Source: an uncultured virus (IMG/VR IMGVR_UViG_3300037488_003116)
Taxonomy: Duplodnaviria; Heunggongvirae; Uroviricota; Caudoviricetes
Reading direction: 5' to 3' (one strand)
DNA length: 64,000 nt
Virus record (IMG/VR): IMGVR_UViG_3300037488_003116
Under the pieces are notes generated by a model, which was not told the DNA's origin, made no database searches, and worked only from the letters and a program-made list of their open reading frames with translations. The translations under genes were made by a program, and so were the position numbers. Position 1 is the stretch's first letter; each line of letters starts with the position of its first letter. Shown here one piece after another: positions 32,160 to 58,747 of this stretch.

Positions 32160-32516
32160 TCAGGATATTACAGGCAGGCCGATGTCTTCGTTGTTGGCAC
32201 TCTGACCGAACAGGGACCCGGCTCCATTGCCTTCGTCGTCCCTGGATGGGAACCATATTGAGTGATCGTCTAACATAAGGACGGCTGGGCTTGATTCCCA
32301 GCCCATAGATTCTCGTTCTTCTTCGGTCATGTATCGGACGCCTATAATCTTTCTACCCAGCAGGCGATTCTTGGCCTGGTCATTCCAGTAGGCTCGTACT
32401 GCGTTTGGGGTGGAGAGATCAGGTTCCTGGTTTGCTGTTTTAAACCCTCCCTCATGCGGGGGTTTTCTGCTGTTGAGTTCGTCTGGGTTGAGCCAGAGGA
32501 TCTTTCTGGGGCTCAT
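32160..32516 (-). CDS. Hypothetical phage protein with N-terminal RKILW motif
   Basis: GGAG RBS; C-terminal PSRDDEGNGAG. Confidence 0.65.
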   Translation of the reverse strand: MSPRKILWLNPDELNSRKPPHEGGFKTANQEPDLSTPNAVRAYWNDQAKNRLLGRKIIGVRYMTEEERESMGWESSPAVLMLDDHSIWFPSRDDEGNGAGSLFGQSANNEDIGLPVIS

Positions 32517-33096
32517 GGCTCCTCCGGGTAGATGGATTCTGGTGGGAAAAGGAATTCAGATTGAAGGTCACTGTCGTGCAAGTCGGCTTCAGACTGATCC
32601 GTGTCGTCTTCGGCTGTGAAAGACTCTACCGGGTCGTCGATGATCTCATATAAGTCGCCGAGGTAGATGACTTCATGCCCGAGTATATCGCTGGCCTTCT
32701 CGGCCAGGTCGGTGCCACTCCAATGGGCCAGGGTGTCTGTGATCTCCTGGATAAGTTCGGAGCTGTCCAGTTTTCGTTTCATTCTCACTCCTTTGTTTCA
32801 GTTTTAATGAATTTTACTTTCCCCTTGGGAATATAGGGTGCTAAAACCTGGGGGGATACCTTTGTGGGCTTCTTTCTGGGCACGCTAATGACCCAGTCCT
32901 CTTTATCGGTCTTAGTCTGGAAGCATAGATGGGCTTTGTCCCTGGCCACCAGGCTGAAGAGTCTCCGGCCAGACTGGGTGACTTTGTAGAATATAATCTG
33001 CCCGGTGTCATGGTTCATGTCTGCCGTGTAGCCGGTAAAAAAGTTGTGCTTGTAGGTAGTTATCATCAGGTTTACTCCCTGTGTGAGGGTTTGTTC

Positions 33097-33795
33097 TTAA
33101 CCTTTCGTTTGAAATGTCCAGCAGTGTCCGCAGTCCAGGCAGCCAGACTTGGTGTGCCTGATAGCCGGGCAGTCTTTCTTGTGCTCGGGGACATGGGCCA
33201 CGACTTCCCCGTGGCAGTGGTACGGGAATACGGTGACTATACGGGGATCATCCGGGACTGTGTCTGACGCCCGGCGAGGGCCGTAGCAGAGCTTTCCCTT
33301 GTAAGACCACGTCTCAGCAGGGGAAGTGGCATCTACGGTCACCAGGAGCCTTAGATTGCGTCTACGGGGCTTATTGATGGCTCGTGCTATCTCCAGTTTC
33401 CTTGTCATGCCCCAGAACTGGGTCTGTGGGCAGGCTTTTGCCAGCTTGAGGATGTTGGGGATGTGACACGGGTTGAGGTCGCCAGACCCACAGATCCGGA
33501 CGGAGGTCCTGGATCTGCATTCGGTGATCAGCTCGCTGATGTCTGGTCCTGCCAGGTAGGCGGAGGTCCAGAGGTGTTTCTTCTGGGAGTGGGGGAAGGC
33601 GATGGGGCCAGACTTGGCGTAGCAGGCTTTAGAGCAGGAGGCGGTTGGTCGGCAGTGCCCGGTGATGGGCAGGTCGATGCTACAGCCGGTCTTCTTGTTC
33701 ACGGAGAGGATAGTGTCCGGGTGGTACTGGGGCGGTGCGTACAGGATCAGAGGTGTGAGAAGCTCTTTTATTCTGTTGACAGGCATCTGAGGCAT
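33097..33795 (-). CDS. Phage gp88-like / radical-SAM-like Cys-rich protein
   Basis: C-x5-C-x3-CYA, RICGSGD, FWGMTR and C-terminal CP...C..C..CW. Confidence 0.6.
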   Translation of the reverse strand: MPQMPVNRIKELLTPLILYAPPQYHPDTILSVNKKTGCSIDLPITGHCRPTASCSKACYAKSGPIAFPHSQKKHLWTSAYLAGPDISELITECRSRTSVRICGSGDLNPCHIPNILKLAKACPQTQFWGMTRKLEIARAINKPRRRNLRLLVTVDATSPAETWSYKGKLCYGPRRASDTVPDDPRIVTVFPYHCHGEVVAHVPEHKKDCPAIRHTKSGCLDCGHCWTFQTKG

Positions 33796-33840
33796 AAGAA
33801 ACTCCTTTATTTGTGGGTTGGTTTGGAGTATTATTTGTGT

Positions 33841-33890
33841 TAACTATTTTCACGAAATAGTTACGGTAACTATTTTGATGAAAAAGTTAC
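33841..33890. promoter_or_regulatory. Tandem palindromic sites, copies 2 and 3, in a divergent intergenic region
   Basis: TAACTATTT-TCACG-AAATAGTTA at 33841-33863 and GTAACTATTT-TGATG-AAAAAGTTAC at 33866-33890. Confidence 0.65.
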
Positions 33891-33909
33891 GTATATAAAT
33901 CAAGGTGTT

Positions 33910-34155
33910 ATGAATAAAATCCGAGAACTGAGTACCAGGTTATTGCCGGAGGGCCAGACTATAAAGACCATCCGGGGTAAGGCTTATTTGTATCAGCAGG
34001 AGTATGGCCGGACCCGGTTCTTGGGTCCGGCTACGGATGAGCAGGTGGACAACTTCAAGAATGCCGGGCTTATTAAATGGTTGATCAAGAATGAGGAGAA
34101 GTTTGTGAAGGGTCTCCTGTACCTTCAGGGGTTGAGGCGGGGAACAGCCGAGTAA
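33910..34155 (+). CDS. Small putative DNA-binding protein
   Basis: IKTIRGKAYLY...RFLGP beta-hairpin motif; one of the few plus-strand genes; follows the palindromes. Confidence 0.55.
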   Translation: MNKIRELSTRLLPEGQTIKTIRGKAYLYQQEYGRTRFLGPATDEQVDNFKNAGLIKWLIKNEEKFVKGLLYLQGLRRGTAE

Positions 34156-34437
34156 TTTTTTCCTTGATCCGGTTTATTTCTACCCTGCAAGCAGAGGTGA
34201 GTATCTGCATTGGTGGTATGAGTTCTTTGGGTTCTCCTTCAGGGAACAGTTGATTAAGGGTGGCGAGAAGTTGTTCGTTCTTGAGACTTTTCAGGTGGCC
34301 TTTTATGCTTTTGCACTCGTGGAGCATGTCTATAGTGGACTTTAGGACGGTGACAGCTTCGTCTGTTTTATGTTGCTGTATGTCAGCTATGGTGGATATG
34401 AGGGCTAGTTCCAGGATTTCTGCGTTGACGGCTTTCA

Positions 34438-34797
34438 TCATTTTGGTACCTCGAAGGTTAGTTTGCCCCGGACTTCTTTGCAGGTTTTGCCATTGAAGAC
34501 CCAGCGCCATTGGGAGAAGTCTTCCCCGGCCATCTGGATGTAGGAGCCGGGTTCTACGTAGGGGGCGAGGGCTTTGAAGTATTCTTTTTCTCCGCCCCGG
34601 CTTTCGCCGATGAATAGTATGCTGGTGATGTCCTGGGTAGGGTCATTGTTTTTGTGCTTGAGTTTCCAGCCGGAGGGGCCTCCCATGCATATCAGATCCC
34701 TTACCCTGATGGCTTGCTCGCTCAGAATCAACACGGCTTTGAAGTTTTTCTTCTTGATATGAAATTTTGCCTTGACTTGGCTCATCAGATAGCTCAT
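34438..34797 (-). CDS. Hypothetical phage protein
   Basis: LAPYVEPGSYIQMAGED..WRW; GGAG RBS. Confidence 0.6.
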   Translation of the reverse strand: MSYLMSQVKAKFHIKKKNFKAVLILSEQAIRVRDLICMGGPSGWKLKHKNNDPTQDITSILFIGESRGGEKEYFKALAPYVEPGSYIQMAGEDFSQWRWVFNGKTCKEVRGKLTFEVPK

Positions 34798-34813
34798 TTT
34801 TTAGACTCCTTGA

Positions 34814-35359
34814 ATGAGGTTTGTAATGCCACTACCAGTAAATTGCCCCGTCTGTAACACAGAGTTTAAAGCCCTTTCCAAAAAAATGGTTGGAAACTGT
34901 TCAGGTCTGTGGTGCCCGAGGTGTTTCAAATTTTTTCTTGCTCCAGAAGTAATTGTACCTAAGATTCAGAAGGATAAAGACCCTGAAAGATACTCTTTAG
35001 AAAACAGGTATATCAGATTATCCTCTTCCGCGACAAGGAGAGGAATAGAGCTTGCCTTGTCTTCGGAGGAGTTTTTTTTGTGGTGGAGAGGTCGTCCAGA
35101 TATCTGTCATTATTGTGGAGGTTCTTTGAGTGACATCATCTATCTGCACAATAAATTTTTAAAGACTAAATTGAGTTCCTATTTTAGCTCTCCACATCTA
35201 ACAGTAGACAGAAAAGATAGTAATCAGGGTTATCTGATAAGTAATATTGAGAAAGCTTGTTTGACCTGTAATCTAATCAAAGGGCCTCTTATGACGGAAC
35301 AAGAGGCCCTGTCTTTGTGCCCAGGTATTATTCAGAGATTTAAGTCTCTTTTGCTCTGA
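34814..35359 (+). CDS. HNH-type endonuclease
   Basis: CHYCG...LTVDRKDSNQGY..SNI..ACLTCNLIKG; AT-rich; antisense to flanking genes. Confidence 0.8.
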   Translation: MRFVMPLPVNCPVCNTEFKALSKKMVGNCSGLWCPRCFKFFLAPEVIVPKIQKDKDPERYSLENRYIRLSSSATRRGIELALSSEEFFLWWRGRPDICHYCGGSLSDIIYLHNKFLKTKLSSYFSSPHLTVDRKDSNQGYLISNIEKACLTCNLIKGPLMTEQEALSLCPGIIQRFKSLLL

Positions 35360-36568
35360 GCTGGCTTAAAATATCCTGTTGAACGAGTACCTGGAAGGCT
35401 TCCAGGGCTTCGTCATAGGTTGAGTAGGCGTCTACCGGGTAATCCAGACAGGTTTCTCCCTGCCAGATGTTGATTCCGAACCAGCCCCAAGTGGAGATGT
35501 CGCCCAGATCCAGCTCCTCGATATCCTTATCGGTCCAGCGGGTGGCGCTGGAGGCCTTTCCTATAATTCTTGGTGACCCTGGTAGTTTTCTGCCAGACAG
35601 ATAACTGAACCTGTATTCTCCGGCAGTGGTCAGGACGTAGGTCCTGTTGAGGCCGGGGACTCGGGCTTCGGCGATATCTTTCCCGGCGTAGAAGATGCTG
35701 TTAGTCTTCTGGGTGCTTATTTTGGGGGTGATGATTGAGATTGGGAGTTCAGTTTCAATGTGAACTGATAAGCTCGTGGCGTTTGGCACGCACGTACGCC
35801 GGGTGGTTCTCTGTCGGGTCTGGGGCAATTTTCCACCAGCCCGTGGCTTGGAAGTTCTCGGTTTCATAATTGAGTTCTCCTTGGTTACAGTTGTCGATGA
35901 TACAGGTTTTGGCTCTTTCTTCCGCTTCCTGGGTCATATGGGCTCGGGTTTCATCTGTGACCCGTTTCCTGGGAGGGAGCCTGTAGAAGTATGATACCTG
36001 GTGGCAGCAGACGGTTACTGTGCCCTCAAATATCCTGCCCTTGGGCCCTGAGACCGTAGCTCCTCTACTTGCCATCGGGAACCTCCTGGATTACGAGGTT
36101 AGAGGCTTTGACCGGTTTCACATGCATGTTATTGGTGACATCTTCGGCCAGGGCATTGAGGAAGGAGGTCTTGTTTTCCCGGTGCAGGAATTCATAACAG
36201 TCGGCATCGGTCTGGGTCATGTCATAGAACAGGATGGGGCCCTGAGCTGAAGCGGCCCCTTTCATGTACCGGATTTGGCGGCAGCGGATATCGACGGTGA
36301 TGGTATCTTTCTTATTCTGAACATTGATTATCATTTTTAGCTTCTATTCTTTTGAGTTCGTTTATTAGCTGGGGGATGTCTGCGGTGGGAATTTCAATAG
36401 AGCATTTCCCCACGAGACCTTTTGAGGTTACAGGAGAGATGGATACGGTCTCCCCGTTGTTCCACAGATTCTTATGAATATATAGACCCGTGGTAATCAA
36501 CATACCGTTACGGCCTATAGACTCAGTTCTTTGCGAGAATTCTATCGAACCATGCGATAATTCTTCCA

Positions 36569-36709
36569 TTACTCCTCCTTTTCGATGTCCAGGATAGCCA
36601 GAGGGCTTATCTCGTGGTTAAGATCGTCTGGGCTGGAGTAGCCCGTGGCCGCCAGATAGCGTGCCTGGGCCTCCGGGTTGAGATCTGTGAAGTAGATTTC
36701 AAAGTTCAT
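36569..36709 (-). CDS. 46-aa ORF paralogous to the C-terminus of the adjacent 36706-37107 ORF
   Basis: FEIYFTDLNPEAQARYLAA versus FEIYFSDLTPEAQARFLAA. Confidence 0.55.
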   Translation of the reverse strand: MNFEIYFTDLNPEAQARYLAATGYSSPDDLNHEISPLAILDIEKEE

Positions 36710-38542
36710 ACCTTCTCTTCCGGTATTCTTAGGATAGTCAGAGGGCATTGTTCCTGGTTTTCTTTGTGTACTATGAGCTGAAGAAGGCTCAAGGCTGCCA
36801 GGAATCGGGCCTGGGCCTCGGGTGTGAGGTCTGAGAAGTAGATTTCAAAGATATGGCCCGGCTGATCAGTAAACGGATCGATTTCAGTCAGGGGCTGCCC
36901 CATAGCGATGTCCAGGTGCTTGGTATAGGAGTCACAGCTCGTGTACGGGGTGAGGCCACTGTAATCCAGACACGGATCAGGGAGATGGTTTCTGACTTTC
37001 ATGGCCAGGTCGTCTGCTCTGAGCTCATCCGTGGTTATGAGAACTATGTCACAGATCAGTTCCCGACCGTCTTCCTCAATAGTGGTAGCTACTACATGGA
37101 GTTTCATTTGTAAGTCCTTGTTTTGAGATATAGGTGCGTTTCAAGAATCTAGTGAGAAGTTACTTTAAGGTCTCATTCATCCGGGATGTCATCAGGGCCG
37201 TCTTCATATTCGAGGTATATTCCCTGTTCTCGGAGTTCATCGGTTAATTGTTCTTGGGTAATCTGGAGGTCATTCTCGAGGTCTTGTCTGTAGGCGTCAT
37301 CCCCGGGCTCCGGGGCATTGGCACTTTCTTCGGCTTCGAATTCGAGGTCATCGTCTGGTATGAATGGATTGTTGTTCATCCTACACTCCCGGCTACACAG
37401 CCATCGTAAGGGTGGGGGCACTTGGGATCAGTGAGTATGTCTAAGAGTTCGAGTACGTCGGCTTTGAAAGACTCTGGCATTTGGTCTCTATGGACAGAAG
37501 TCCATATACCTACGGCGGCTTTCCTTTCGCCGAAAGTGAGGATGGTTCCGGTTTCTTTATGCTTCAGGGTTACCCACCATACGTATGAGTACTGCATACG
37601 TGTGGGTACTGAGTAGACTTTAGCGGCGAACAGGACAATGAGGCGGTACAGGAGCAGGGCCGAGGAGATAACTTCGTACATGAATTTGTACTTACCAAGA
37701 TCATGTGATTCTTCTCGGAGGACAAACTTCCTGGAGGTTCGATCCCATTCCGGGCGTTGGTCGCCGTAGAGTCCTGCTTGAGGCGCTACGGGTTTCCATT
37801 TGGCTTTGAGTTTCTTGACAGTCTTTGCGTGCAGGTCATGGTCTTTGTTCCGGCGTTGGTTGTAGCGTGGGTTCACCACATAGTTTTCCATTATGAAGCT
37901 CCTTTGTTAGAGGGTGGTGGTATATCCAGACGTAATACCTGGTAGGCGGGCGTCACGGGTCACATCTCGCAAGCCTTACTACGGTCTGGGACTCCTGTGG
38001 GGGGGACGACGACGGGAGCAGCGTGCCTTCTTCTTTATGGGGGTAGGGTTTGCCTGCTCGAGGGTGTCAATTCGTGTTAGGGTGTACGTTCGTAAGAGGA
38101 GTACCGAATCAACGTATATCGTGGAATCATAGTTGACAGTGGTGTCGGGTGTTGAGCGTCTTTCTGACCATGATATTTTCTCGGTTCGGGTGATGCGAAG
38201 TTCCTCTCTTGGGATTACATCACGCCTTACTATGGAGTCGGAGACGGCGATCATGGACAGAATTAGAATCAGGAAAACAATCTTCATCGGCATCGTCCTT
38301 ATTTGAAGGTGGGGGTACACGAGGCTTATCAAAACTGAGCCCGGCTAAGAGTTCAGGGTTCTGTTCCATGCCATCGTTGATGACAATGGTACGTATACGT
38401 TCAGTGGGGATGCCCAGTTTATCGAGGGCCTTCTCGATGGCCACTTGATCAGACTCTCTTTTCGAGAAGGAGTCAGTGGTGGAGTAGTTCTTCATATATT
38501 CCTTTAAGGGAGGGGGATTGCTCCCCCTCCGGGTCAGAGGTC

Positions 38543-39166: not shown

Positions 39167-39195
39167 GATAGAACTCCTTGAGAATGGTTTAGGAT

Positions 39196-42085: not shown

Positions 42086-42099
42086 TCTGAATCTTCCTT

Positions 42100-42810
42100 T
42101 CAGCGAGCGTACTTCTTACAGGGTTTACGAATCTTTAACATCCACGGTAAATCTTTCACAACCTTCGTCGAGTGGACTAACTTGCCCTTGGGATCTTTCA
42201 GGATGATGCCTTCGACAGACTCATCCATGTCCCAGGCCATTTTAAAGAGATCCCAGAAGCCAGACGTCCACACCTGCGACAAGACGACGTGCGTGCCAAA
42301 CTTCAGGGTCTCCAGGATCTTCCTGGAGTCTCCCCAGGTCTTGCCCAGTAAGAGCTGGTCTTTCCATCCCATCAGGCAGTGAACGATGATTCTGTTCTTG
42401 ACTCTGGCTGTGCATCGGTTCATGGTCTCTGCGTTGACGATGCAGCCACTCGGGAAGATCTCCGCCATCTCCTCCAGGACTTCGGGACTGGGCTGGTAAG
42501 CCAGACGGGCATGGTGCCGGTTCCACCAGGTGTTAGTGCTCGTGTAGATCAGGGTGTTGTCCCCGTTCCACTTCAGCTCGGCGATATATTTACCTGTAGC
42601 CTCCAGACTATCGAGGTAGTCCCGTGAGGGGTGGGAGACACTCTTCGGGTCAATGGGCATCAGGACTGGGCGATTGGGATAGTAGTAGGCGTTATTCATC
42701 ACGGGGTTCACCCGACGTTCTGTGGGCCCCAGTATCTCGGGAGTCCACAGGATTTTTCTCGATCCCTTTTTCTTGGCGACAGGTTTGGTCAAAGCTAATG
42801 GATTAGTCAT
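42100..42810 (-). CDS. ATP-dependent ligase-like nucleotidyltransferase domain
   Basis: Motif I variant ELKWNGD, motif III IVNAE, motif IV EGIILK and motif V LKIRK; no OB domain. Confidence 0.75.
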   Translation of the reverse strand: MTNPLALTKPVAKKKGSRKILWTPEILGPTERRVNPVMNNAYYYPNRPVLMPIDPKSVSHPSRDYLDSLEATGKYIAELKWNGDNTLIYTSTNTWWNRHHARLAYQPSPEVLEEMAEIFPSGCIVNAETMNRCTARVKNRIIVHCLMGWKDQLLLGKTWGDSRKILETLKFGTHVVLSQVWTSGFWDLFKMAWDMDESVEGIILKDPKGKLVHSTKVVKDLPWMLKIRKPCKKYAR

Positions 42811-44000: not shown

Positions 44001-45416
44001 TCATTCTTCCTCCCTCTTAAATTTGATCTGAGCTGTAGTGCATTCAGACGGATCTACGTCATCCCGGATCTCTTTGAAGCTGGGCTGATATAGATGCCCA
44101 TGCTGTCCATTGACGTAGAGGTATTTGATCTCGGCGATTGACCCAATCGGGATGGGCATCTTGCTGGCGGCAACCGTGCAGTAGCCCCTGAATTCCCAGG
44201 TGCCCTGCTGGTTCAGGAGTTCCAGACCGATCGAGTTTTTACCTGGTCGTCCGGCACAAACTCGTGCAGAGAGTTCTGCATAGAACTTGTGCTTGAGCAT
44301 ATCCCCACCGGTTGAAGGTCGTCCGGCAGAGACCCTTGCTGTGAGCTTCTTGAAAACAACGCCTTCTCGTTTCTCCCTTTTGAACTGCTCATACATGAAT
44401 CGTTTATCTGTCCCAACATAGAGGGGGACTAATATAATCCCTGATTGGGAAGAAGCGAACAGCCTACGGAGTTCGATGTATCTATTGTTGTAATCATATC
44501 CTCGGAGGTCAGTTATAAACTCCTCGTGGATGTCAAAAACGTGAAAGTTATCCCCTATCTGCTCTCCATCTAAGAGCAGGTGAGTGTTTCGTAGAGACCA
44601 ATCTTCAAGGACTGGGATGACGCTATGAATGAAGGAAGGCGACGCGGTAACTAAGATTCCCTTCTTGTTCGTGACCCATAGACCCGGTTCAAAGACTCCT
44701 TCCCCTATCGACAATGCCTTCCGCTTCCATTCGAGCATCTTATGGGTGCCGTCTTTCTTCTCTTGAAGTCCCCAGTCCGGGTCATCGAGCAGACGCTCCG
44801 CCGTCTCCTCGTCGATCTCGTTAAGGAGCTGGGGGTAGTTACCCGTCTGGATTTTCTCACCTGGCGACATGGCCTGGGTCTCGGGGACTGGCGTGCTGGT
44901 TATAGGTGTAACTGGTTTACAAGGTGTCACAGGTGTTGCGTCTGGATTGTCCCAGAAGATCTTCCTGCGGTGGACATGGCGAGCGGGCTCTGTGTTAGGG
45001 GGAGTTACAGGTGCCGGAGGAGTCTCAGTCCGGAGAGCTGTGGCCATGCCTGAGACCCCCGGAGCAGGCCGAGTATGGAGGGCTTCAGGGGCGACCCCGT
45101 TGTCCCATTGGATGGCCTCGTAGCCTTTAGCCAGCTTACTGTTCAAGAGGGATTCAAAAACTTTTAGGGCCTTCTCGTAGGAGACTCCCCCATCAGCAGT
45201 TTTTGTCCAGGGCACCAGGGAGGCACCTCTCCGTCCAGACTGTGCCTCTACCCGGTAGGTGAGCTGGGCGGATTCTTGCCCGCCCGCGATTTCTTCTGTG
45301 AATTCTTCCTCGTGCTCATTCAACTGGATGTCATAGACCTTATCACTGCTCCCTTCGTTGCACCAAAGGGAAACGCTTCTAAGAGTACGCATGGAAACGC
45401 TTCTAAGAGTACGCAT
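44001..45416 (-). CDS. WGR-domain ATP-dependent DNA ligase
   Basis: N-terminal EGSSDKVY...GRRG...K..KGY, Pro-rich linker, QEKKDG, LLDGE, FDI, EGVVFK, LKHKF and an OB-fold EIKYL...LYQP....R.D. Confidence 0.85.
   Translation of the reverse strand: MRTLRSVSMRTLRSVSLWCNEGSSDKVYDIQLNEHEEEFTEEIAGGQESAQLTYRVEAQSGRRGASLVPWTKTADGGVSYEKALKVFESLLNSKLAKGYEAIQWDNGVAPEALHTRPAPGVSGMATALRTETPPAPVTPPNTEPARHVHRRKIFWDNPDATPVTPCKPVTPITSTPVPETQAMSPGEKIQTGNYPQLLNEIDEETAERLLDDPDWGLQEKKDGTHKMLEWKRKALSIGEGVFEPGLWVTNKKGILVTASPSFIHSVIPVLEDWSLRNTHLLLDGEQIGDNFHVFDIHEEFITDLRGYDYNNRYIELRRLFASSQSGIILVPLYVGTDKRFMYEQFKREKREGVVFKKLTARVSAGRPSTGGDMLKHKFYAELSARVCAGRPGKNSIGLELLNQQGTWEFRGYCTVAASKMPIPIGSIAEIKYLYVNGQHGHLYQPSFKEIRDDVDPSECTTAQIKFKREEE
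45369..45416. repeat. Perfect 24-nt tandem duplication of the ligase gene start
   Basis: GGAAACGCTTCTAAGAGTACGCAT twice, giving MRTLRSVS twice. Confidence 0.9.
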
Positions 45417-46520: not shown

Positions 46521-47060
46521 TCAGTTCTCCTTCCATATGATTCTGCGACCGGGGGACACCAGTAGTAAGGGCCCGCTCGCCTCCATCAGCAGTTTAGTCT
46601 GGACTGGCGTCGGGCCAGACTCGAAACCCAAAGGCTCGCTGGCATCAATCCACCCGTGATCGTCCGGATCTTCCCCCTGATATTCTACCACACCCGATAA
46701 GGTATATCCTCTCGGAGTTAAAACATTATCGATGATGTACTTGAGCCACTTGCGGTACTCATAGAACTTCTCGCCCCCGTCCCATTCTATACCGTTGTGG
46801 TCTTCAGTCGGTGCCCATAGACACCACAGACTTGGCTGGGTACGGGGTGGTCGGTCATAATCGAGAACAGTAACATCTCCGGGCTCTTCTCTGCCGTCTA
46901 CAAAGAACTCCCCCTCGATTCCGTACTTACTGGTAAGAAGGGGGCTGAATTTGCGAGCCACACGCCGGGTCTCGTTGAGCTTGACAAGAAAGGAATATGT
47001 CTCTTCGTCAAGGGGCTTGTTTAACCAGAAGCGCCCGGTGAATTCTGTCGTATACCCCAA
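46521..47060 (-). CDS. Hypothetical phage protein (MGYTTEF-type) with C-terminal RRIIW
   Basis: GGAGG before a TTG at 47060; QPSLWCLW...IEWDGGEKFY...WLKY. Confidence 0.65.
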   Translation of the reverse strand: MGYTTEFTGRFWLNKPLDEETYSFLVKLNETRRVARKFSPLLTSKYGIEGEFFVDGREEPGDVTVLDYDRPPRTQPSLWCLWAPTEDHNGIEWDGGEKFYEYRKWLKYIIDNVLTPRGYTLSGVVEYQGEDPDDHGWIDASEPLGFESGPTPVQTKLLMEASGPLLLVSPGRRIIWKEN

Positions 47061-47312
47061 AGTAAACCTCCTTCTATATGTTATTCCACAGTATGAACTC
47101 TGATCTTGGGCTGTGCACAGAAAGAGCCGTAGCACTGTAGCATGCGTCAATCATCCTTCTCGCACTGTCAAGTATTGACTTATCGGAAGGTTCTCTCTCT
47201 GTCTCAGTCCTGACCTTTACATTTACTGATATGCCGGTTGACCGGGGATAGCCACGGACACCCAGTGGCTTCCCCAGACTGACCTGTGCCCGGCAGCACC
47301 ATATGCACGCCA

Positions 47313-47636
47313 TTATTCTTTCCAGATTATCTTGCGGGGTTTGACCGTCTCTCTGGCGGGTTCCGCTTCCTTGCCCCTCACGGGAATCTGCTCCCGGATA
47401 GCCGTTGACCGGTGCTCTTGCGTTCTGTCAACCCCGATCCTGGTGCAAGTCCGATCGGCGTTGCCAGACTCAACTGCACGGGTATGTTTACACTCCCGTT
47501 CTTTGTCCGCCTTCTTCATGCACCAGCCGGGACATCCACAGCTCGTGTGCCCGTCAGCATACTGGAGGGTCTCATACTCCTTGTCCGAGGATGAGGATTT
47601 GAAATACCACGACTTTACTATGTCGTTGCTACTCAT
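47313..47636 (-). CDS. SWIM zinc-finger protein with C-terminal RKIIW
   Basis: SSSSDKEY...SCGCPGW...CKH. Confidence 0.75.
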   Translation of the reverse strand: MSSNDIVKSWYFKSSSSDKEYETLQYADGHTSCGCPGWCMKKADKERECKHTRAVESGNADRTCTRIGVDRTQEHRSTAIREQIPVRGKEAEPARETVKPRKIIWKE

Positions 47637-48470: not shown

Positions 48471-49472
48471 TTAGTCCTCCTTGTTAAGGGCGTTACATAT
48501 TCTTGTGCAACAGACTGGTTCCTTTTTATCTTCTCTGAGGAAGCCCTGAGACGCAGTATGAATATGACATCTTTCTATTTTGTCGTAGACATGCCATGAT
48601 CTACCACCGTCTTCATAATCAAAATGTTGAACTTCATATCTCGTCTCTGTTTTAGGTGGTTCCTCGTCGGGTTCTACATCAGGGAACTCTTTCCCTTCAA
48701 TAAGGGATACACTGAAGTCATACCCCTCTTCTCCACAAGATTTAACCCGAATACCGGCTCGTTCCATAGCCTCCTCAAACAGCTTTCTGGTACTGTATAT
48801 GAAGGTCAGATTGTACAGAACACGCTGATACTCACGCTCGATGCCTTCACTCTTATTGTGTAGGATAATCTCCCCTTTGCCCTTCAGATACTCCTTGAAT
48901 CTTCCATGGAGCTTTCGTTCAAGGATCCTTTTACGAATGGCCTCAAACTTCTTATGGGTCTCCTCATAAGTTATGTGCTTTTTGCTCTCTTTGAGGTGCT
49001 CTAATAGCTCATCTGCATAGGACTTGAGCATCAGGGGGTCTTCAGCATATCGCATATTGAAAAAGGCGTGCTCTGCAAAAGACATCTTCATGCCGAGGTC
49101 TGAGTGGGGATCAAGAGTAGCGATCCTCTCACCTAACAACATGCCATGGCCAAGCACGGCACCGAGTAAGGTCCGGAGAGGCTTGCGCCCTTGGCCCTTA
49201 TCTTCATAGGCAACGTGGGGCAGGCTTACCCGTGTGACGAACGGGGGAGAGCAGACTCCCCCATCGCCGTGGCCCTTGAAGGCCTTGAGCAGGGCCTTCT
49301 CGTCAAGTGTATCCATGTCCTGATAGTCCTGATAGTTCTTTATATATTTCCGGTACTCCTTGGGTTCAGCTTTGATGTTCCAGCGCTTCTTAATGAATCG
49401 GAGGATTGCGTCCATTTCATTCGAGAAGTTAAAATTCATGTAGTTATTCAGATCGCATAGTTTATAGCTCAT
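48471..49472 (-). CDS. Hypothetical protein
   Basis: 333-aa ORF coupled to neighbours. Confidence 0.65.
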   Translation of the reverse strand: MSYKLCDLNNYMNFNFSNEMDAILRFIKKRWNIKAEPKEYRKYIKNYQDYQDMDTLDEKALLKAFKGHGDGGVCSPPFVTRVSLPHVAYEDKGQGRKPLRTLLGAVLGHGMLLGERIATLDPHSDLGMKMSFAEHAFFNMRYAEDPLMLKSYADELLEHLKESKKHITYEETHKKFEAIRKRILERKLHGRFKEYLKGKGEIILHNKSEGIEREYQRVLYNLTFIYSTRKLFEEAMERAGIRVKSCGEEGYDFSVSLIEGKEFPDVEPDEEPPKTETRYEVQHFDYEDGGRSWHVYDKIERCHIHTASQGFLREDKKEPVCCTRICNALNKED

Positions 49473-50733
49473 CCTTCAATCGCTCCAGACGGGAATGCCC
49501 CACTCCGCCACTGCTTGGCCACGAGTGCGTTCCTGGTCGGGTCGAAGAATGACGGGGTGTAGTGGTAGGTCCTGTTTCCAATCGTGTATGACCTGTTGAC
49601 AATGAACTTGTTGTCCGGAGTCCTCAGAATGAACAGGTACAAGAGCTCAGCCATCAGGGCGTCGTGCTCAGCGTACAAGGTCTTAGCGGCCGCAATCTGC
49701 GTGCGTAGTGCTTCCAGACGATCGAACTTGGCTTGGATGGCCTGTTCCATCTGGGAGACTGAAGGGGACAAGGAGACCGGGGGCGTGCGTCGTGTTCTTG
49801 GCATAAAAGTAACCTCCTGAAAATAGGATTAGGATTGAGTGCAGTGTTAGTGGACACAGGGCGGGCGTAGCGTAGTAAGGCTTGCCCTACTCGATGAGAG
49901 TGATAGAGCTCCGACTCTCATGGGCATCTTGTTCGGTCGGGTCTCCATCAAGGCGAACAATGACTGTGTTCTGCATGAAGGCTTGATAAGCCCTCTGCTC
50001 AGGATCGCCCTCTGTGTCAAAGTCCTCAAGCTCGTCATGGATGACGGTGGCCTTACCCTTGTCGGTAAGAACCCGATCCCCAGTCTCATAGACTGGGGTT
50101 GGAATGTTAATGATCTTCATCTGTTCTTGTCGCTATTGACGATGATGGACATCTCTCGTTCCAAGGCCCGGGCATAGGAGTCAGGACTATCACAGGTGCC
50201 TCGGATTCTTCGGATGGCCCTCTCGGTCGCATTGAAGCGACCCTTGATGGGCCATTTGCCCGAGTCATCCTGCTGTCTGAACAGCCGGTTGATGACTCGG
50301 GTCTGGCCCAGAGGTGTATCGCTCTTCTTCCATGCAATACTCAGGATCTGCTCTGCTGACTTTGTCTTCATCGCCCATCCGCCCATAGTTCATAGGCAGC
50401 TTCCTTCGCTGCCTCATCGCATGCTTCGAGATAGTCAAAGATCTTAATCGTCATCTCGTTGTCATCAATCAGGCGAGAGAGATCGATTGCCGTTATGGGT
50501 TGCTTAGACAGGACTACCCGTTCAATCTCTATCTGGGCATCCTCGTCCGGCTCCAGGGGCGGGCCGAACTTGCCGTCTCGGGCTCCCTTACAGGCCGGAG
50601 AGTAGTGGTAATGAACATCAACCTCATACTCCTTGTCCGTGTACCGAGACAGGATTTTTGTCGTAAATATATTCGTGAATGAGGCCATTTATTTCCTCCT
50701 AGTCTAACCATAGACTATATTGAAAGGGTTAAT

Positions 50734-51807: not shown

Positions 51808-52416
51808 TCATCCATGCATCTTCATGTAAGTCGAATAAGCTATGGGAGTTATAACGTACCACTCACCCATCGGGCTGTCATGGTGGAAGTTCTGCATGGC
51901 CAGCTTCTTCCCGTGTCTGACTTTGAAGAACCGATAGATGCACTGTGTATCAGGAAGAGTCTCTCGGAGCAACTCTTTGCCGTCCTGAACCTTCATGTAC
52001 TTGTATCCTGTTTGCTTTCGCCAGCCGAAGTCATTGACATTAACCCTGAAGTACATGGTCTCCCCGTTCTGGGTCTTGGTCAAGGCTCTCAGGGCCTGAG
52101 TCAGTTCTTCGTTCAGGTCATTGAAGGCCATCTCGAAGATGTCCTGATCTTCTAAGACTTCAGAACGAATTTCCTCTATGAGTTTGTTCTTGATCTTCAA
52201 GATCTCCTGCTCGGTACGTTCTCCTTTGATGCCCGGATGACCCATGACTTCTTTAGCCATGGCCTCGGACAGCCGTTGAAGATAGTCCTCGTTGTTTTCT
52301 TCCGTCAGGTACGTGACCTGACCATCGGTGATATCAGACTCATCCCAGCCACAGATGGGCGTAGTGATCTTGACTGGGGCCAGAGCCTTGACTCTTATAA
52401 GTTCTTTCTTGTCCAT
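51808..52416 (-). CDS. Hypothetical phage protein
   Basis: 202 aa; AGGAG RBS; HHDSPMGE motif. Confidence 0.6.
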   Translation of the reverse strand: MDKKELIRVKALAPVKITTPICGWDESDITDGQVTYLTEENNEDYLQRLSEAMAKEVMGHPGIKGERTEQEILKIKNKLIEEIRSEVLEDQDIFEMAFNDLNEELTQALRALTKTQNGETMYFRVNVNDFGWRKQTGYKYMKVQDGKELLRETLPDTQCIYRFFKVRHGKKLAMQNFHHDSPMGEWYVITPIAYSTYMKMHG

Positions 52417-54616
52417 ATTAAAGGTACTCCTGTTATTAGTTAATGGTTGTACTGGCGGCTAGTGCATTAATCATACCCAGTAAAGCCGGATCTTGTGTAA
52501 GGTCATTGGATACTTCGTCTACAGCTTCTTTCAGACTCAACCAAGGGCATTGGGCACGTTTGTTTTTGACCATAGTCTTCAGGACTTCTTTTCGATGGGT
52601 CAACTGTTCGGGGGTTAGAGTACTCAGAGTTTCTGCATTCCGGGGTTTCTGCATTCCCTGGCTCCTTCGGGTCCTTTGAGAGTGTACTCATGGCAGGTAT
52701 CGCAGACGAATATTTCTTCTCCAGATGGAAGAGTGATGTACTGAGATATAAGATATCCGCCCGGAGCCCGGGCCAGCTCTTCGTCTGAGGTCTCTGCTGT
52801 TACCTTGCCGGTCTCGGGATTGTAGGTTGCGGGAACTGTGATCTTGGGGCCGTCGTCCCAGTGCGAGGTGAACGTGACATTGATTTCATTGCTCATTCTT
52901 AGCTCCTTGTGGTAAGGTTTAGTCGGGTCTGCCTGACCCGCTCAGGGAACATCTGCGGGTTGTTCTTACGATAGATACTCAGTAGGCGGGTGGCGTGCCC
53001 CAGTCTGGTTCGGTAGTCCTTCTGCTGGGCCGGAGTGATGTCGTCCGGTGTCTGCTTGGCCCTCTTCAGAGCCAAGAGACAGATCCCGATCTCCTGTTTC
53101 AGCTCGTATATACTTCGAGTGGTCCTTATTACTTGGCTTAAAGAGATCACAGCATTGAGTCCTTGATTTTATTTTTCAGGTTCTGGAGCTCTCTCCTGAA
53201 CTTATGTGCGAGATTTCTGTACTTTTTACTCCTGTCTTTCTCTATCTGAAGGTCGTATATCAGTTGCCTCATTTTAGAGATGTCCGCTTCAACTTGTTCA
53301 GCATGGGTCGGCTGATTTTTAAGTCTGATACAGTGCTCCCGTATCTCTTTGAAGACCGACTCCCTTCCTCGCAGGAACTCAGTCGTGTCGGGTTCCTTGA
53401 TCTCCTTTGACTCGATGTCTGCACCTTTCAGGATAGTCATGGTATAAGACACCGCCTTAAAGCTTTCTTCATTTAACTGCAACCACTTGGTCTCACCTTT
53501 TGTGGATCGCATCTTGATCGAAACCCCATATTGATCTATGGGTAAGAGACTCTTGGCCTCTTCATCGTAGTATCTGTATGGCTCACTCATCTGATTTCTC
53601 CTTCTTAAGTTCGTAGTAGATTGTACTGAGAGGCCCAAAGGCTGGGCACAGCTTGGTCTGAATCAATAGGGAGGTCAGCCCGGCCATGGGTGACAGGTAG
53701 GCAAACCCTTGTATCTCTTCGGCGGCCTTCAGCAGTTGGTCTCGGGTGAAGGGGGGATTCTCCATGGCCTTATCAAAGGTTGGGAAGTCCATCACAGTCA
53801 TGTAGGAGTCCATGTGAGTCACACGCCCATTGAGGCCACTGATAAAGACTCCCTGCTCTTGCAGGTAGTCTTCTACTTCATTCATCATACTGTTCATTGC
53901 ATGCTCCTTAGTTGAACTCTTGGCACAAGTTTATGGCCTGCATGGTAGCTATCGCCAAAGATTGTAACCCCCATGAAACTGCTGTACCGTATGTTCTTTG
54001 GACATACAGTACGTTCTTTACCGTCAGGGGATATGATAACATCCCCAGCGACTATCCTGTTCTTATGTACGTGGACAACTATTTGATGTGACTCACTCAT
54101 ATCAATCCCCATGGTCCGAGTTCTTTGTACAGGACTGTCCCGTTTTTTTGTAACTGAGGCCAGTACCTTTTACATTTATGCGTAGGGCAGTAGGCTTGAC
54201 ACTCCCCCTCTGGTAGCTCAGAGGTAGGGGGTATCAGGCCCGTGCCCTTGCACGGGCATTTCTCTGAGCGTACGGGGTACAGGGTGCTTTGGGTCATACT
54301 GCCAAGACTTGTTCGGGGATTTCATATGCTGTCACATACGTTGCATTGTACGTAGTCAGCATCTCTTTGCCCTTCTCGGTCAGGGGCCTGGGGTAACCGA
54401 AGCATGAACCATTGTCATAGCACCATACGAAATGTGCTCGGGGGTCAAGATCAATTGCAACCATTTCATCCACCCAGTTCTGGGGCAGGGCACAGTCGTA
54501 TGATCTCAGCCCTAACAGTTTGCATGCGTCTTCCACTGTGACTCTCATACTGTTCCTTTCGTTAGAGAAAAGGGTTCCCCGGCAGGCCTGTAGCCTTACC
54601 GAGGAACCCCATATAA

Positions 54617-55624
54617 CTATTCCGCTGCCGACTCATCCTTCCACACAATCTTCCTCTTGTATGTGCCAGAGATGGCACTGATGTCTGAGATGTCCGACGC
54701 TGCAGAAGCAATGGAAGCCAGGCGCTCCTTGAGCTGTACCTGCATCTCCGGGGAAGACAACTGCTCAGTAGTGGATGTGGTCAGGAACTCTGCCTTCAGA
54801 GCTTTCAACTCGTCATCGATCCGAGTATCACCCACGAAGTTGAGGTTCTGAAATTTGTCCACGAAACTCTTCAGAGCAGTGATGCTCTTGTTCGTGATGA
54901 CCTTGCCCTCCTTGATGGACTGCGAGATCCGAGTACAGACATTCACCGTCTCACTTCTGAGCTGGGCAACCACATCCTCAACGAAGGCATCAAGCTTCGC
55001 TTGAGTCTGAGCTCTCAGTTCCTCCGTGGCATAGTCCCCGGTGCTCTGGCCGATCTCAAAAGCATCCCACACGATGTCGTACTTGGTAAGTATGGCTTCG
55101 GGTGTCGGATAGTAGGACTTGATCCGGGTCAGGAATGCTTCGACGAATGTACTCTTCTTGGCTTCAAACTCTTCCATGTTGAACTCCGTCACTCCCTCCG
55201 GCTCCAACTGAATGAAAGCCGTTTCCGCCGCCTGTCGATAGACCGGGAGCATCTGTTCCCGGTACTGCTCCAGGTTCTCGGACAGAGATTTGGCCAGGGC
55301 CAGGTAGTGCTCCCGGCAGTCCTTCAGTATCTCGATGACTTTGGGGATGTTATCTTTCGGAACAAATCTCGAAGAGCCGATAGGGAAATTCAATCCGTAG
55401 GGAAAGTCGGCTGCCCGACGTGCTTTGCCTTCCCAGTACCGCAAGTCCTTGATAACTTTGTCCGGTACCAGCATCTTGACGCCGAGTTTGAAAGCTTTCG
55501 GTACCTTTTTAGCATCAAGGCCCATGTCCTCGGGCGTGAGACTGATAGACCCCGACCATGCCGGGATATGGATATTTAACAGTAATCCGTCGCCCCAAAA
55601 CTTACTTGTTTCTCTTGTCGCCAT
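54617..55624 (-). CDS. DUF3150-like protein with C-terminal KRKIVW
   Basis: WSG...L...D.G......P....LG.K.LVP...RFVP layout; sits next to the AAA module. Confidence 0.7.
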   Translation of the reverse strand: MATRETSKFWGDGLLLNIHIPAWSGSISLTPEDMGLDAKKVPKAFKLGVKMLVPDKVIKDLRYWEGKARRAADFPYGLNFPIGSSRFVPKDNIPKVIEILKDCREHYLALAKSLSENLEQYREQMLPVYRQAAETAFIQLEPEGVTEFNMEEFEAKKSTFVEAFLTRIKSYYPTPEAILTKYDIVWDAFEIGQSTGDYATEELRAQTQAKLDAFVEDVVAQLRSETVNVCTRISQSIKEGKVITNKSITALKSFVDKFQNLNFVGDTRIDDELKALKAEFLTTSTTEQLSSPEMQVQLKERLASIASAASDISDISAISGTYKRKIVWKDESAAE

Positions 55625-55649
55625 GATAGACTCCTTGAAAATTGTTTTG

Positions 55650-55678
55650 AAAAAGAAAGGGGGGAAGAACTCCCCCCT
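55650..55678 (-). terminator. Rho-independent terminator
   Basis: Minus strand GGGGGAGTTCTTCCCCCC hairpin followed by TTTCTTTTT. Confidence 0.6.
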
Positions 55679-55681
55679 GTG

Positions 55682-56188
55682 TTATGCTACTCTACGACTC
55701 GTAAGCGTTTCAAACTGTGGCTGTGGCAACATACGGGGTTGTGGAGGATGAGTCTGAGCTCTATTCCTCCTCTCTATATATTTCGGAGTGTTGTATGTGT
55801 TCCACAGAGCCCGGTGCTTTTCTATGGCCGCCTCATAAGCCCTCTGGTTTCTAAGCCGGAAGACTCCCTTGGCTACCTGGCCATGAAGGGTGGTCACATA
55901 GCCAGTGACCTGGAAGATCGTTACTTCCTCGGGCATGTGCTGACGTTTGAATGTGACACAGAGATCCCGTTCAATGATTCCGTTGTTCGGGATGAAGAGC
56001 TCATTCTTGATCTTATCTTTCTCAGGCTCGAACAGGTCACGTATCTTTAAAGACTTGTGCCCATTCTTACTGGGAGTCTTACCCGGTGGAGACTCGGTCA
56101 CTCTTACAACCGGAGGATCCAATACCGCAACCACGACGGGTTCCGGAATTACGGGCTCCGGTTCGGGTGTCCAAATTATCTTTCTCAT
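55682..56188 (-). CDS. Stand-alone paralog of the sigma-factor C-terminal domain, N-terminal MRKIIW
   Basis: NGH...KIRDL, LF.P.NG, DLCV.F, FQVTGY...LH..VA and HRA.W.TY...KY are shared with 6944-7855. Confidence 0.8.
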   Translation of the reverse strand: MRKIIWTPEPEPVIPEPVVVAVLDPPVVRVTESPPGKTPSKNGHKSLKIRDLFEPEKDKIKNELFIPNNGIIERDLCVTFKRQHMPEEVTIFQVTGYVTTLHGQVAKGVFRLRNQRAYEAAIEKHRALWNTYNTPKYIERRNRAQTHPPQPRMLPQPQFETLTSRRVA

Positions 56189-56233
56189 GGAACTCCTTCC
56201 TTTAGAGGAGGGAGGGGATTTCTCCCCTCCTCG

Positions 56234-57850
56234 TTAGTTGTTCTCGGGGGTATTCGCTCCTACTATTTTCCTGGTGGCCTTACGGGCCTCAGGCGGTGTG
56301 GCAGGCAGATTCCGTTCGGGCGACGCCCTTTTGCACCCGTGGCTCAGAGCCCATTCCCGGTTCTCCGCAATCTTAGCACCCATCATCATGGAGGTTGGAG
56401 TGATCTCATTTTTCGTGTTGATGAAATCCTGCATGGTCAAGTCCGGATGCTTAGACGCATAGGCCAGTTTTAGGGCCTCTTGAACCCACTGCTCTATGTC
56501 TGCTCCGGAGAACTGATCACACAGTGCTACCAACTGGGCCATATTCGCATTGAACATGTTCGGATTGCGCCCGATCTTCCGCAGGTGAATCTTAATGATC
56601 TCCTCTCGCTGGATATAATCCGGGAGGTCCACCCAGTACAGCTTGTCGATACGTCCTGACCGAAGCAGTTCAGGCGGGAGAGCCTTCACTGAGTTAGCTG
56701 TAGCGGCCAGGAATACCTCCGACTTATTTTCCTGCAGGAAGTTCAGCAACATACCGAAGACCTTCTTCGTGGTCTCGTGGCCTTCGTCTCCATCCCTGTT
56801 CCCGGACATGCTCTTCTCCAGCTCGTCCATCCAGAGAATGCATGGGGCATTAACGGCGGCAATTTCCAAGCACTTGGCCATGTTGGCTTCTGATTCTCCA
56901 ACATACTTGCCGAAGATCTTACTCACATCCATGCGGAACAATGGCATTCCGAAGGCACCGGCTATGGCCTTGGCCAGGAGGCTCTTACCACAGCCAGGGA
57001 CGCCCACGAAGATCATGCCCCTTGGAGACCGGACACCGTACTCATGAGCGGCCATCGAGAAGTTATTCTTACAGAGCGTAAGATCCGCCTTAAGGATTTC
57101 CAGCCCACCTACATCGTCCAGGGTCTCAGTCACCTCGATGACTTCGAGGCTACCCGATCTCCGAACGCTGTCGGACTTCTCTCGCCGGATAATCTCAGGC
57201 TTGAGACCTTTGCCCTCAGACAGAGACCCTGAGTAGGCATTACTTGCCTCGTTCGATGTCATTCCGAGAGCCGCATGGATCAGCTCTTCCTCCAGTGCTG
57301 GAGATGGAAGCTTTGTCATCTTAGCCGATGCACAGATGTCCTGAAGGACTGCCTTGAGCTCGATTCTGGTAGGGAGCTTATAACTAATAACTCGAACTTC
57401 TTTGTCCAGCTCCCTGGGAATGTTGACCACAGGGCTCAGCACCACTAAGCACTTGCATTCACTCCGAAGTTTCGGGAGGCTATTACGTATTGTACGTATT
57501 ACAATATCCGAAGTCGGGAAAGTCTTCGGATCAAGATACGTGTGGTAATCCTTCAGAAACACGATAGTCTGTTCTCCGGGTCCCCCCGTTCCATCTGTCT
57601 TCGGCGGCGAGGTGATCCATCGCAGGGGGTGCAACGGGTCGTTGTCCGACTTCGGCACCGGCACGCCATACACCATCTGACCCTGATCCATGTAGATCGT
57701 ACTCTGTCCCCGGGCCACGTCCCAGGTATAGGTTTTGAAGCCTTCTCTTTCTGCCTCGGCGACGAGCTCGACCAGAGCACGCTCCTCTTCATACGTTTCG
57801 ATCCATAGGAAGGCGTACGAGGCCTTGACCTTGTTCATGAAATCTGACAT
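56234..57850 (-). CDS. Ycf46-like AAA+ ATPase
   Basis: Degenerate N-terminal AAA domain (W.ETYEEER, FLKDYH), then DVGGL, GVPGCGKS, LWMDELEK, ATAN and PPELLRSGRID. Confidence 0.9.
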   Translation of the reverse strand: MSDFMNKVKASYAFLWIETYEEERALVELVAEAEREGFKTYTWDVARGQSTIYMDQGQMVYGVPVPKSDNDPLHPLRWITSPPKTDGTGGPGEQTIVFLKDYHTYLDPKTFPTSDIVIRTIRNSLPKLRSECKCLVVLSPVVNIPRELDKEVRVISYKLPTRIELKAVLQDICASAKMTKLPSPALEEELIHAALGMTSNEASNAYSGSLSEGKGLKPEIIRREKSDSVRRSGSLEVIEVTETLDDVGGLEILKADLTLCKNNFSMAAHEYGVRSPRGMIFVGVPGCGKSLLAKAIAGAFGMPLFRMDVSKIFGKYVGESEANMAKCLEIAAVNAPCILWMDELEKSMSGNRDGDEGHETTKKVFGMLLNFLQENKSEVFLAATANSVKALPPELLRSGRIDKLYWVDLPDYIQREEIIKIHLRKIGRNPNMFNANMAQLVALCDQFSGADIEQWVQEALKLAYASKHPDLTMQDFINTKNEITPTSMMMGAKIAENREWALSHGCKRASPERNLPATPPEARKATRKIVGANTPENN

Positions 57851-57865
57851 ATGCTTACTCCTTAG

Positions 57866-58330
57866 TTAAGGTTTGGTTCCATTGTATTGTAGTGCCAAGT
57901 TGGACATCTCATTCCTGTCCAGACCTCCTGTGGCATCAGGCAGGATAACTCTGAGGACTGTCCTGCCACATTCCGTGGCTTCGACGAACAGAACATCGAA
58001 GTTCTTGATAATGCCTGCGACCCGGTCCCCGGCAGTGTAGATCACTCCGTCTTTGATCTGATCGACGATGATGCCTAAGATGTCATGAGCTACTTCTATT
58101 GGGAGAGGACAACAGATCTGCAGATTGAGATGCTTGCTGGTGACCTCTAGCCCATGTGTATGCATGTTGTACTCGTAGGGGGCCTCGTCGTCGTCCATAA
58201 CGAAGTGGACATACCATCCATACTTTACCATGTTCTCTTTCTCGCGGGCCTCCAGTGCATCACATACGGGCTTATCGAGTTTGTCATGCTTGGGCTGATC
58301 TGGGTTAGGCCCTATTATTTTTCGATTCAT
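57866..58330 (-). CDS. DUF4262-like protein
   Basis: KYGWYVHFV...HTHGL. Confidence 0.6.
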   Translation of the reverse strand: MNRKIIGPNPDQPKHDKLDKPVCDALEAREKENMVKYGWYVHFVMDDDEAPYEYNMHTHGLEVTSKHLNLQICCPLPIEVAHDILGIIVDQIKDGVIYTAGDRVAGIIKNFDVLFVEATECGRTVLRVILPDATGGLDRNEMSNLALQYNGTKP

Positions 58331-58743: not shown

Positions 58744-58747
58744 TGTA

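Follow-up and report, generated by a model that had tools for sequence, protein, structure and literature searches.

A recurrent R-[KR]-I-x-W peptide on unrelated proteins of an uncultured virus, possibly a docking tag of a Cdc48/p97-like AAA+ unfoldase module

In a 64,000-nucleotide stretch of DNA from an uncultured virus of the Caudoviricetes (IMG/VR record IMGVR_UViG_3300037488_003116; the whole stretch is referred to as the window), about nine unrelated proteins of the element share a peptide of the type R-[KR]-I-x-W, situated on a disordered end or in a linker. We give even chances to the reading that this peptide is a lineage-specific docking or recognition tag of a Cdc48/p97-like AAA+ unfoldase module, composed of a Ycf46-type AAA ATPase, a DUF1257 protein and a DUF2997 protein. 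The peptide is enriched in the window, lies mostly near protein ends, is conserved in relatives, is gained in a modular manner and is linked to the AAA module across lineages. An original prediction, made from the letters alone, had already proposed a shared docking or targeting signal at the protein level, and this core of the proposal is supported by the enrichment, the placement, the conservation in orthologues and the modular gain of tails. New here are the identification of the AAA protein as a p97/Cdc48-like unfoldase and the detection of a Trp-free version of the tag on its tail.

Because the pattern was picked after it had been seen, the P value of its enrichment is generous; conservation in relatives provides independent support. 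A six-frame scan of the 64 kb gave eight matches to [KR][KR]IxW. Seven of them fit R[KR]IxW and lie on the minus (coding) strand in real open reading frames (ORFs), at precisely the places from which recurrence on unrelated proteins had been claimed; the eighth falls in a plus-strand ORF of only 16 codons. For comparison, the 131 minus-strand proteins (18,198 amino acids, aa) were shuffled 2000 times, as had been suggested together with a check of terminal bias. The shuffles gave a mean of 0.14 matches to R[KR]IxW versus the 7 observed, and none of the 2000 reached 7 (Poisson 2e-10), so that the early estimate of well under one chance match held. RKI.W was moreover the top-ranked gapped 4-of-5 word across the window proteome. 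The codons vary among the copies (R as AGA, AGG or CGC; I as ATC, ATA or ATT), which confirms conservation at the protein level and rules out a DNA-level repeat as the origin of the tag. In six of the seven proteins the tag lies at most 22 residues from a protein end (P(>=6/7) = 2e-4), and the seventh copy occupies a Pro-rich linker joining WGR and LigD-like ligase domains. The flanks are Pro or acidic residues, and the Trp is typically followed by x-N-P-[DE], by T-P-E, or by K-[DE] and then the stop. Thus, as would be looked for in a docking tag of an AAA+ protein, what recurs is a short conserved peptide in disordered terminal or linker regions of unrelated proteins.

The carriers, all encoded on the minus strand, can be described by the place of the tag. 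At the N-terminus, a 118-aa protein (gene 32160-32516) beginning with MSPRKILWLNPD carries RKILW at residues 4-8 (32493..32507), followed by LNPDE, and its ATG is preceded by a Shine-Dalgarno-like GGAGGA run. A 236-aa ligase-like protein (gene 42100-42810) has RKILW at residues 18-22 (42745..42759), followed by TPE, and a 168-aa protein (gene 55682-56188) has RKIIW at residues 2-6 (56171..56185), reading MRKIIWTPE. At the C-terminus, RRIIW is found 3 residues from the end of the product of gene 46521-47150 (209 aa, probably 179 aa; tag 46533..46547), RKIIW 2 residues from the end of a 107-aa SWIM-signature protein (gene 47313-47636; tag 47322..47336) and RKIVW 7 residues from the end of a DUF3150 protein recognized by Pfam (gene 54617-55624; tag 54641..54655). 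The linker copy, RKIFW (44952..44966), belongs to the 471-aa WGR and LigD-like ligase protein (gene 44001-45416). Two near variants in which Trp is replaced by Gly proved real as well: RKIVG, in the context TRKIVG, near the C-terminus of the AAA protein within its disordered tail (56258..56272; alignment and AlphaFold2, AF2), and RKIIG at residues 3-7 of a DUF4262 protein (gene 57866-58330; tag 58310..58324; Pfam and orthologue comparison), which starts with MNRKIIG followed by PNPD. A third variant, KKIWTE of SpoVG, has no spacer residue and could not be supported.

The functional labels that had been given to these carriers fared unevenly. The ligase label is fair for the 471-aa protein (PHROG ligase 4e-11; WGR 9e-17) and weak for the 236-aa protein, where Pfam DNA_ligase_A_M stays under the cut-off (E 0.014). 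The SWIM label relies on a CxC...CxH signature, with no match in Pfam. In the 168-aa protein, the tag and a Pro-rich linker are followed by a domain in common with a sigma-like protein (6944-7855), so the label of a sigma-related domain is a loose one, the sigma regions themselves not being part of it. This domain is the approximately 100-aa C-terminal domain of the sigma-like protein (phrog_1740), and the tag and Pro-rich linker stand where the sigma part would be. As a separate observation, the 5' end of the WGR-ligase gene contains a perfect 24-bp tandem duplication (45369-45416) encoding MRTLRSVS twice, of which the orthologue in the related metagenomic locus L001 has a single copy.

To look beyond the window, a metagenome scan was carried out with the AAA protein as the query, giving 75 loci (L-numbered in the following). 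The strict tag was present in ORFs of at least 50 codons in 10 of these 75 loci: four matches in L001, three in L004, four in L005 (one of them internal and doubtful) and one each in L002, L003 and L019. The single matches in L026, L028, L041 and L073 are probably due to chance. Orthologues of the DUF3150, SWIM and 168-aa proteins and of the ligase linker in L001-L005 and L019 have the tag at the equivalent site. In the case of the WGR-ligase, the L001 linker reads RRKILWDNPD; in the case of the SWIM-signature protein, P-R-K-I-x-W is invariant in 3/3 aligned orthologues with a variable linker. The 168-aa orthologue of L019 carries KRTIIW, and the DUF4262 orthologue of the same locus, MERKIVWPNPD, shows W where the window has G. 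An extra carrier was detected in L001, where an Api92-like protein has the C-terminus HRKIIMN.

For DUF3150, 32 of 34 homologues from a large protein collection have [RK][RK][IVLM] in their last 30 residues, with W in 27. In an alignment of 30 sequences reaching down to 33% identity, R is kept in 30/30, K in 27/30, I in 26/30 and W in 26/30, with x free. The family of the 209-aa protein numbers 582 homologues that share a core of some 150 aa. The C-terminal linker and tag are present in a subset only, the strict motif occurring in 5 of 120 listed members and variants including KRKVVWEE and RKIRLD. The tag thus behaves as a modular add-on. Three further relatives of this family (L078-L080) are without tag, and so is the one weak DUF3150 relative found in IMG/VR (L077). 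Searching IMG/VR with the AAA protein gave no close relative, none turned up in GTDB genomes either, and GenBank phages gave none with the DUF3150 query. Recurrent VRKPNSP peptides of the Corndog-like phage Smooch were set aside, as they resemble what we take to be the known DNA repeat of its cluster.

The AAA protein (538 aa, 56234..57850, minus strand) contains one active classic-clade AAA domain, placed in its C-terminal half (PF00004 at 279-408, E 1.2e-30; p97 D2, E 2e-57), and its homologues bear the source name 'SpoVK/Ycf46/Vps4 family'. Its AF2 model (predicted local distance difference test, pLDDT, of 88) matched p97/Cdc48 D1-D2 over the full length in Foldseek, with template modeling (TM) scores of 0.66-0.68, which indicates a tandem motor of a degenerate D1-like and an active D2 domain without N domain. 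The AAA ATPase is accordingly a p97/Cdc48-like tandem-domain unfoldase that belongs to the Ycf46 type and has the DUF1257 and DUF2997 genes close by. Its last 20 residues (519-538), tag included, are predicted to be disordered (pLDDT <50). Similarly, the DUF3150 tag is located at the frayed, unpacked end of the last helix (mean pLDDT of 53 at residues 321-330, <50 at 327-335). For these two proteins the earlier statement that the tags lie outside folded domains is thus backed by AF2 models, and for the other carriers alignments suggest the same. The fold of DUF3150 gave no PDB match at E <=0.001 in Foldseek and only generic helical bundles in VIA-align (Z <=10.3). In the close relative L019, the AAA gene (995-3672) is interrupted: its N-terminal part ends near 2029, its C-terminal part resumes at 3154, and a 233-aa ORF (2084-2785) sits in between. 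This may be an insertion of the homing-endonuclease or intron type.

Next to the AAA gene, the module comprises a DUF2997 protein (58513..58842, minus strand; likely start 58743, giving 76 aa; PF11211 E 1.1e-8, 35.3 bits versus a cut-off of 24.1) and a probable DUF1257 (Ycf35-like) protein of 145 aa (58748..59185, minus strand). The latter was recognized by phrog_20456 and joined by jackhmmer to DUF1257 ORFs; Pfam is blank for it at E <=1, and its homologues in L005 pass PF06868. DUF1257 is equated with ycf35 in a passage of one paper (PMC4284462). The remaining AAA clades of the loci come from bacteria, and there the AAA gene is followed by DUF1257 and DUF2997. Natural fusions of DUF1257 and DUF2997 (196-202 aa; L031 2-610, L032 4570-5160) argue that both small proteins work together.

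The linkage between tag and AAA can be described at the level of tails. From 120 listed AAA homologues, 5 fragments shorter than 480 aa were removed. The pattern [RK][RK][IVLM] was present in the last 30 residues of 78/88 closer and 4/27 farther homologues, and in 174/1439 internal windows. At position 5, these AAA tails have L, V, I, M, F or G; W occurs there in 0/78, versus 27/32 DUF3150 tails. On CP114559.1, a 199-kb plasmid of Candidatus Manganitrophus (Nitrospirota), AAA, DUF1257, DUF2997 and DUF3150 (found by tblastn) stand in a row. Here DUF3150 ends with ...KRKIRILPEAQEAVA, the AAA protein with ...QRRLRGG... and an 847-aa neighbour of the module with ...KRKIRLSPGS, and across the whole plasmid KRKIR is confined to DUF3150 and this neighbour among ORFs of at least 60 codons. 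The module of this conjugative plasmid (L081; CP114559.1 115-133 kb) is located beside a large ParB, a PRTRC (ThiF/E1-like) cassette and a JAB protein. On two betaproteobacterial plasmids, DUF3150 has a MoxR-like ATPase on one side and a VWA-like protein on the other, and the tail is missing in 2/2. The same pair of MoxR-like AAA and DUF2201 (VWA/metallopeptidase) that flanks DUF3150 there is also found in L005, the relative of 46% identity, at 15913-18244.

In further plasmid modules, the tail of the AAA protein is similar to that of a neighbour: GGRTIDF and SGRMIDF in Bacillus, GGRTFEF and GRRLEF in Rhodococcus, GGRQIDF and SRRLDL in Arthrobacter, YRRISH with SRVIHF and KRVIRL in Paenibacillus, RRQVLG and RRRNILI in Comamonas, and ...RAMALD... 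and RRRALDL in Rhizobium (AAA tail given first). Over nine plasmid modules, the similarity of AAA and neighbour tails was 16.8 within the own module versus 12.2 across modules (permutation p = 6e-4). In addition, DUF1257/DUF2997 accompany AAA tails of at least 16 aa in 14/15 loci, versus 2/14 for short tails (Fisher 2e-5). Except in a cruder six-frame version of the tail test, tag and AAA were found to be linked both in genome context and in evolution.

A possible mechanism can be outlined from these data. The tag would be exposed on disordered N-termini, C-termini or linkers, with R, I and W at alternating positions facing one side of an extended strand; such alternation, with the fourth position left unconstrained, points to a peptide that would bind in extended form. 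If it binds at all, the receptor may belong to the module, as either DUF1257/DUF2997 or the AAA ring. DUF3150 may be the oldest carrier, from which the tag would have been copied within the clade onto at least eight further proteins, among them the two ligase-type proteins, the SWIM protein, DUF4262, the sigma-associated domain and, in a relative, the Api92-like protein. The tagged proteins could thereby reach the unfoldase machine, their fate as clients being presumably that of substrates or of cofactors. The C-terminal tail of the AAA protein bears what looks like a weaker, Trp-free version, R-K-[IVLM]-x-L/V/I/M/G. This version may either hold the motor at the same receptor or serve as a displaceable pseudo-ligand.

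Several points weigh against this outline. The census covered the 64 kb window, with the host genome outside its scope, and in the AF2 monomers both the AAA tail and the DUF3150 tail are undocked in cis. The permutation p of 6e-4 was obtained from coding sequence lists compiled by hand from annotation tables and from nine modules of which three are mutually related, and the cruder version with six-frame ORFs was not significant (p = 0.11). The co-occurrence of long tails with DUF1257/DUF2997 was counted in 29 of 71 AAA rows having at least 2 kb on both sides, 42 having been dropped for short flanks; by tail type it amounts to 6/7 versus 2/8 (p = 0.04), and it may reflect the AAA subfamily instead of a contact. 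Conservation in orthologues, which the original prediction had put forward as a check, holds for DUF3150, SWIM, the 168-aa protein and the ligase, but the tag is patchy: DUF4262 of L001, L002 and L004 is without tag, DUF3150 of L019 reads RKIIL with W replaced by L, and the AAA tail of L005 is GRKLSVAG. Finally, an AAA protein that itself bears the tag fits equally well as a client of an outside hub. Recruitment of all carriers to one hub or compartment, with the AAA protein among the clients, was in fact the first proposal; the present evidence instead connects the tag with the AAA module, and no hub emerged from it.

Recruitment of clients to AAA+ machines through peptide tags is a familiar principle, but no description of the present tag or of its machine was found in the literature search. 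The cofactors of p97/Cdc48 bind the N domain with VBM, VIM and SHP motifs, and the C-terminal tail of p97 is bound by PUB/PUL domains. The window likewise has a p97-like motor, many unrelated partners with a short, partly basic linear motif in disordered regions, and a disordered C-terminal tail of the motor with its own motif. It differs in that the AAA protein is without N domain, that the motif is another one, and that motor and partners bear versions of one motif. HbYX tails of the Rpt/PAN ATPases, of Blm10 and of Pba1/2 dock in the pockets of the 20S alpha-ring. Here, too, one tail motif is common to an AAA motor and unrelated proteins, and the plasmid relatives end exactly with ...GR.IDF or ...GR.LEF at the C-terminus. 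The tag is nevertheless not an HbYX motif: it contains no Tyr, no 20S-like partner was seen, and the hydrophobic-Tyr-X signature at the extreme C-terminus is absent. Its occurrence at N-termini and within a linker also shows that it does not depend on a free carboxylate. The MIT domain of Vps4 binds the MIM motifs of ESCRT-III, which is similar in respect of terminal peptides on helical clients and a classic-clade motor; the window AAA is without MIT domain, however, and the tag appears strand-like rather than helical. In the case of ClpX, which recognizes ssrA as well as N- and C-motifs and is assisted by the adaptor SspB, the resemblance lies in short tags at either end, an unfoldase and a small adaptor as possible reader, and the difference in the AAA clade, in the lack of a known protease partner and in the fact that the motor itself is tagged.

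Other explanations have to be weighed against docking on the AAA module. The tag could dock all carriers, AAA included, on a hub outside the module, encoded by the element or the host, such as a sliding clamp, a DNA-end or single-stranded-DNA-binding (SSB) type of platform, or RNA polymerase. We regard this as unlikely, though still worth consideration, since the carriers include proteins of DNA transactions (WGR-ligase, ligase-like and SWIM proteins), the AAA protein is tagged, and distant AAA relatives in Corndog-like phages lie near Ku and a sliding clamp. Space for such a hub exists as well: window proteins are identical to entries on a 77,877-bp contig, so that about 14 kb of the element, besides the host genome, probably lie outside the window. 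What speaks against it is that the tag accompanies the AAA module on replicons of very different kinds and varies together with the AAA tail, that it is unlike any clamp, SSB or Ku motif known to us, and that Pfam and PHROG scans found no clamp, Ku or SSB family in the window. The bacterial beta-clamp-binding motif, QL[SD]LF, was rejected, as no instance of the tag has Gln at position 1. A hub candidate within the window, a 111-aa protein encoded at 49469-49804 that shares 91% identity with its orthologues in L001 and L004, was set aside as well, the ESM Atlas giving nothing above 0.86. A distinctly less probable alternative is a transport address, by which the carriers and the AAA protein would be packaged into virions, transferred with the DNA into a new cell or admitted to a compartment. 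Encapsulation and cargo peptides also occur at either protein end, the module occurs on conjugative plasmids, where ParB and PRTRC genes are close by, and an unfoldase is plausible as a translocation motor; yet the window has no capsid, portal, type IV secretion system or shell gene, and the tag varies with the AAA lineage and not with the transfer system (MPF_F, MPF_T or none).

Even smaller is the chance that the tag is a degron by which host proteases (ClpXP, ClpAP-ClpS) time the destruction of early proteins. Basic-hydrophobic terminal peptides do resemble the N- and C-motif classes of ClpX, and L005 encodes a ClpS homologue (13545-13817; PF02617, 4.8e-18). However, an internal linker site and the conservation of Arg, Ile and Trp across distant replicons and different hosts fit this poorly, and ClpS requires an N-terminal aromatic residue, which the tag never supplies. 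Docking of a PPP phosphatase through an RVxF motif of the PP1 type, the formal likeness noticed at the outset, is hardly credible. The pattern [KR]-x(0,1)-[VI]-{P}-[FW] does fit 7/7 tags, with a basic N-flank, an acidic C-flank and probably binding as an extended strand. Nonetheless, the context is that of bacteria or mobile elements, and the scans of the window revealed no PPP phosphatase. The only metallophosphoesterase (16933-17532) is PF12850-like but below the Pfam cut-off, resembles the small aq_1665 protein and belongs to that half of the window which has no tags.

Docking on the AAA module can also be formulated more widely, as a tentative and rather doubtful extension. In this form, Ycf46-type AAA, DUF1257 (Ycf35) and DUF2997 would constitute a prokaryotic Cdc48-like machine that reads a code, R-x-[ILV]-x-hydrophobic, specific to each lineage. 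Plasmids and phages would write this code on their own proteins and on the motor tail for routing, and the Trp form would be the high-affinity client version that displaces the motor tail. If true, the code would open a direct way to the unknown function of ycf46 and ycf35, two genes that cyanobacteria and plastids have conserved. Independently of this extension, the tag connects four families of unassigned function, namely Ycf46-like AAA, DUF1257/Ycf35, DUF2997 and DUF3150, which are widespread in plasmids, phages and cyanobacteria, and it designates ligases, WGR and SWIM proteins as candidate clients. A shallow full-text literature search gave nothing of relevance on such a tag, on DUF3150, on DUF1257/DUF2997 or on Ycf46.

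Regarding the surroundings of the module, a Cys-rich protein of 87 aa (58341..58604, minus strand) has paralogous copies in all close relatives and is, among the examined loci, confined to the tag-bearing clade. A radical-SAM protein recognized by Pfam follows at 61307..62098 (minus strand). Genes for 4Fe-4S or radical-SAM (activase-like) proteins are recurrent neighbours of the AAA-DUF1257-DUF2997 module on unrelated replicons (L089-L093; L005 4071-4793), and Hsp70-like proteins stand beside some modules (L096 101-1687, with GrpE; L027 and L051, upstream of AAA). PADLOC returned weak IetA-like AAA hits only, and the AAA module is absent from its listed defence systems.

As for the window as a whole, the minus strand carries nearly all genes, the majority being ORFans. 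Pfam and PHROGs recognized an FtsK-like ATPase, SpoVG, the sigma-like protein (6944-7855), GP88, DUF3150, AAA, DUF4262, DUF2997 and radical-SAM. No virion or conjugation genes were visible in the window with these two databases, so the element could be a phage or plasmid-like. An intergenic gap of 400 bp (31765-32160) coincides with a break in composition, the G+C content being about 0.44-0.49 before and about 0.50 after it and the GC skew passing from -0.47 to +0.13. It contains a 21-bp repeat in 2.5 copies (32084-32135) with a TTGACA-like core, and all tag-bearing genes have coordinates above this gap. At the low-coordinate end, genes for the type I-C proteins Cas7, Cas8c (Csd1) and Cas5d (346-3689) touch the window start; the window contains no Cas3, Cas1, Cas2 or Cas4 and, according to Tandem Repeats Finder, no CRISPR array, and more of the set may lie outside. 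Further along, a 182-aa protein (8862-9410) consists of the N- and C-terminal pieces of an ABC ATPase of the AriA/GajA/PtuA type with the middle missing; it represents a minimal form or else a remnant.

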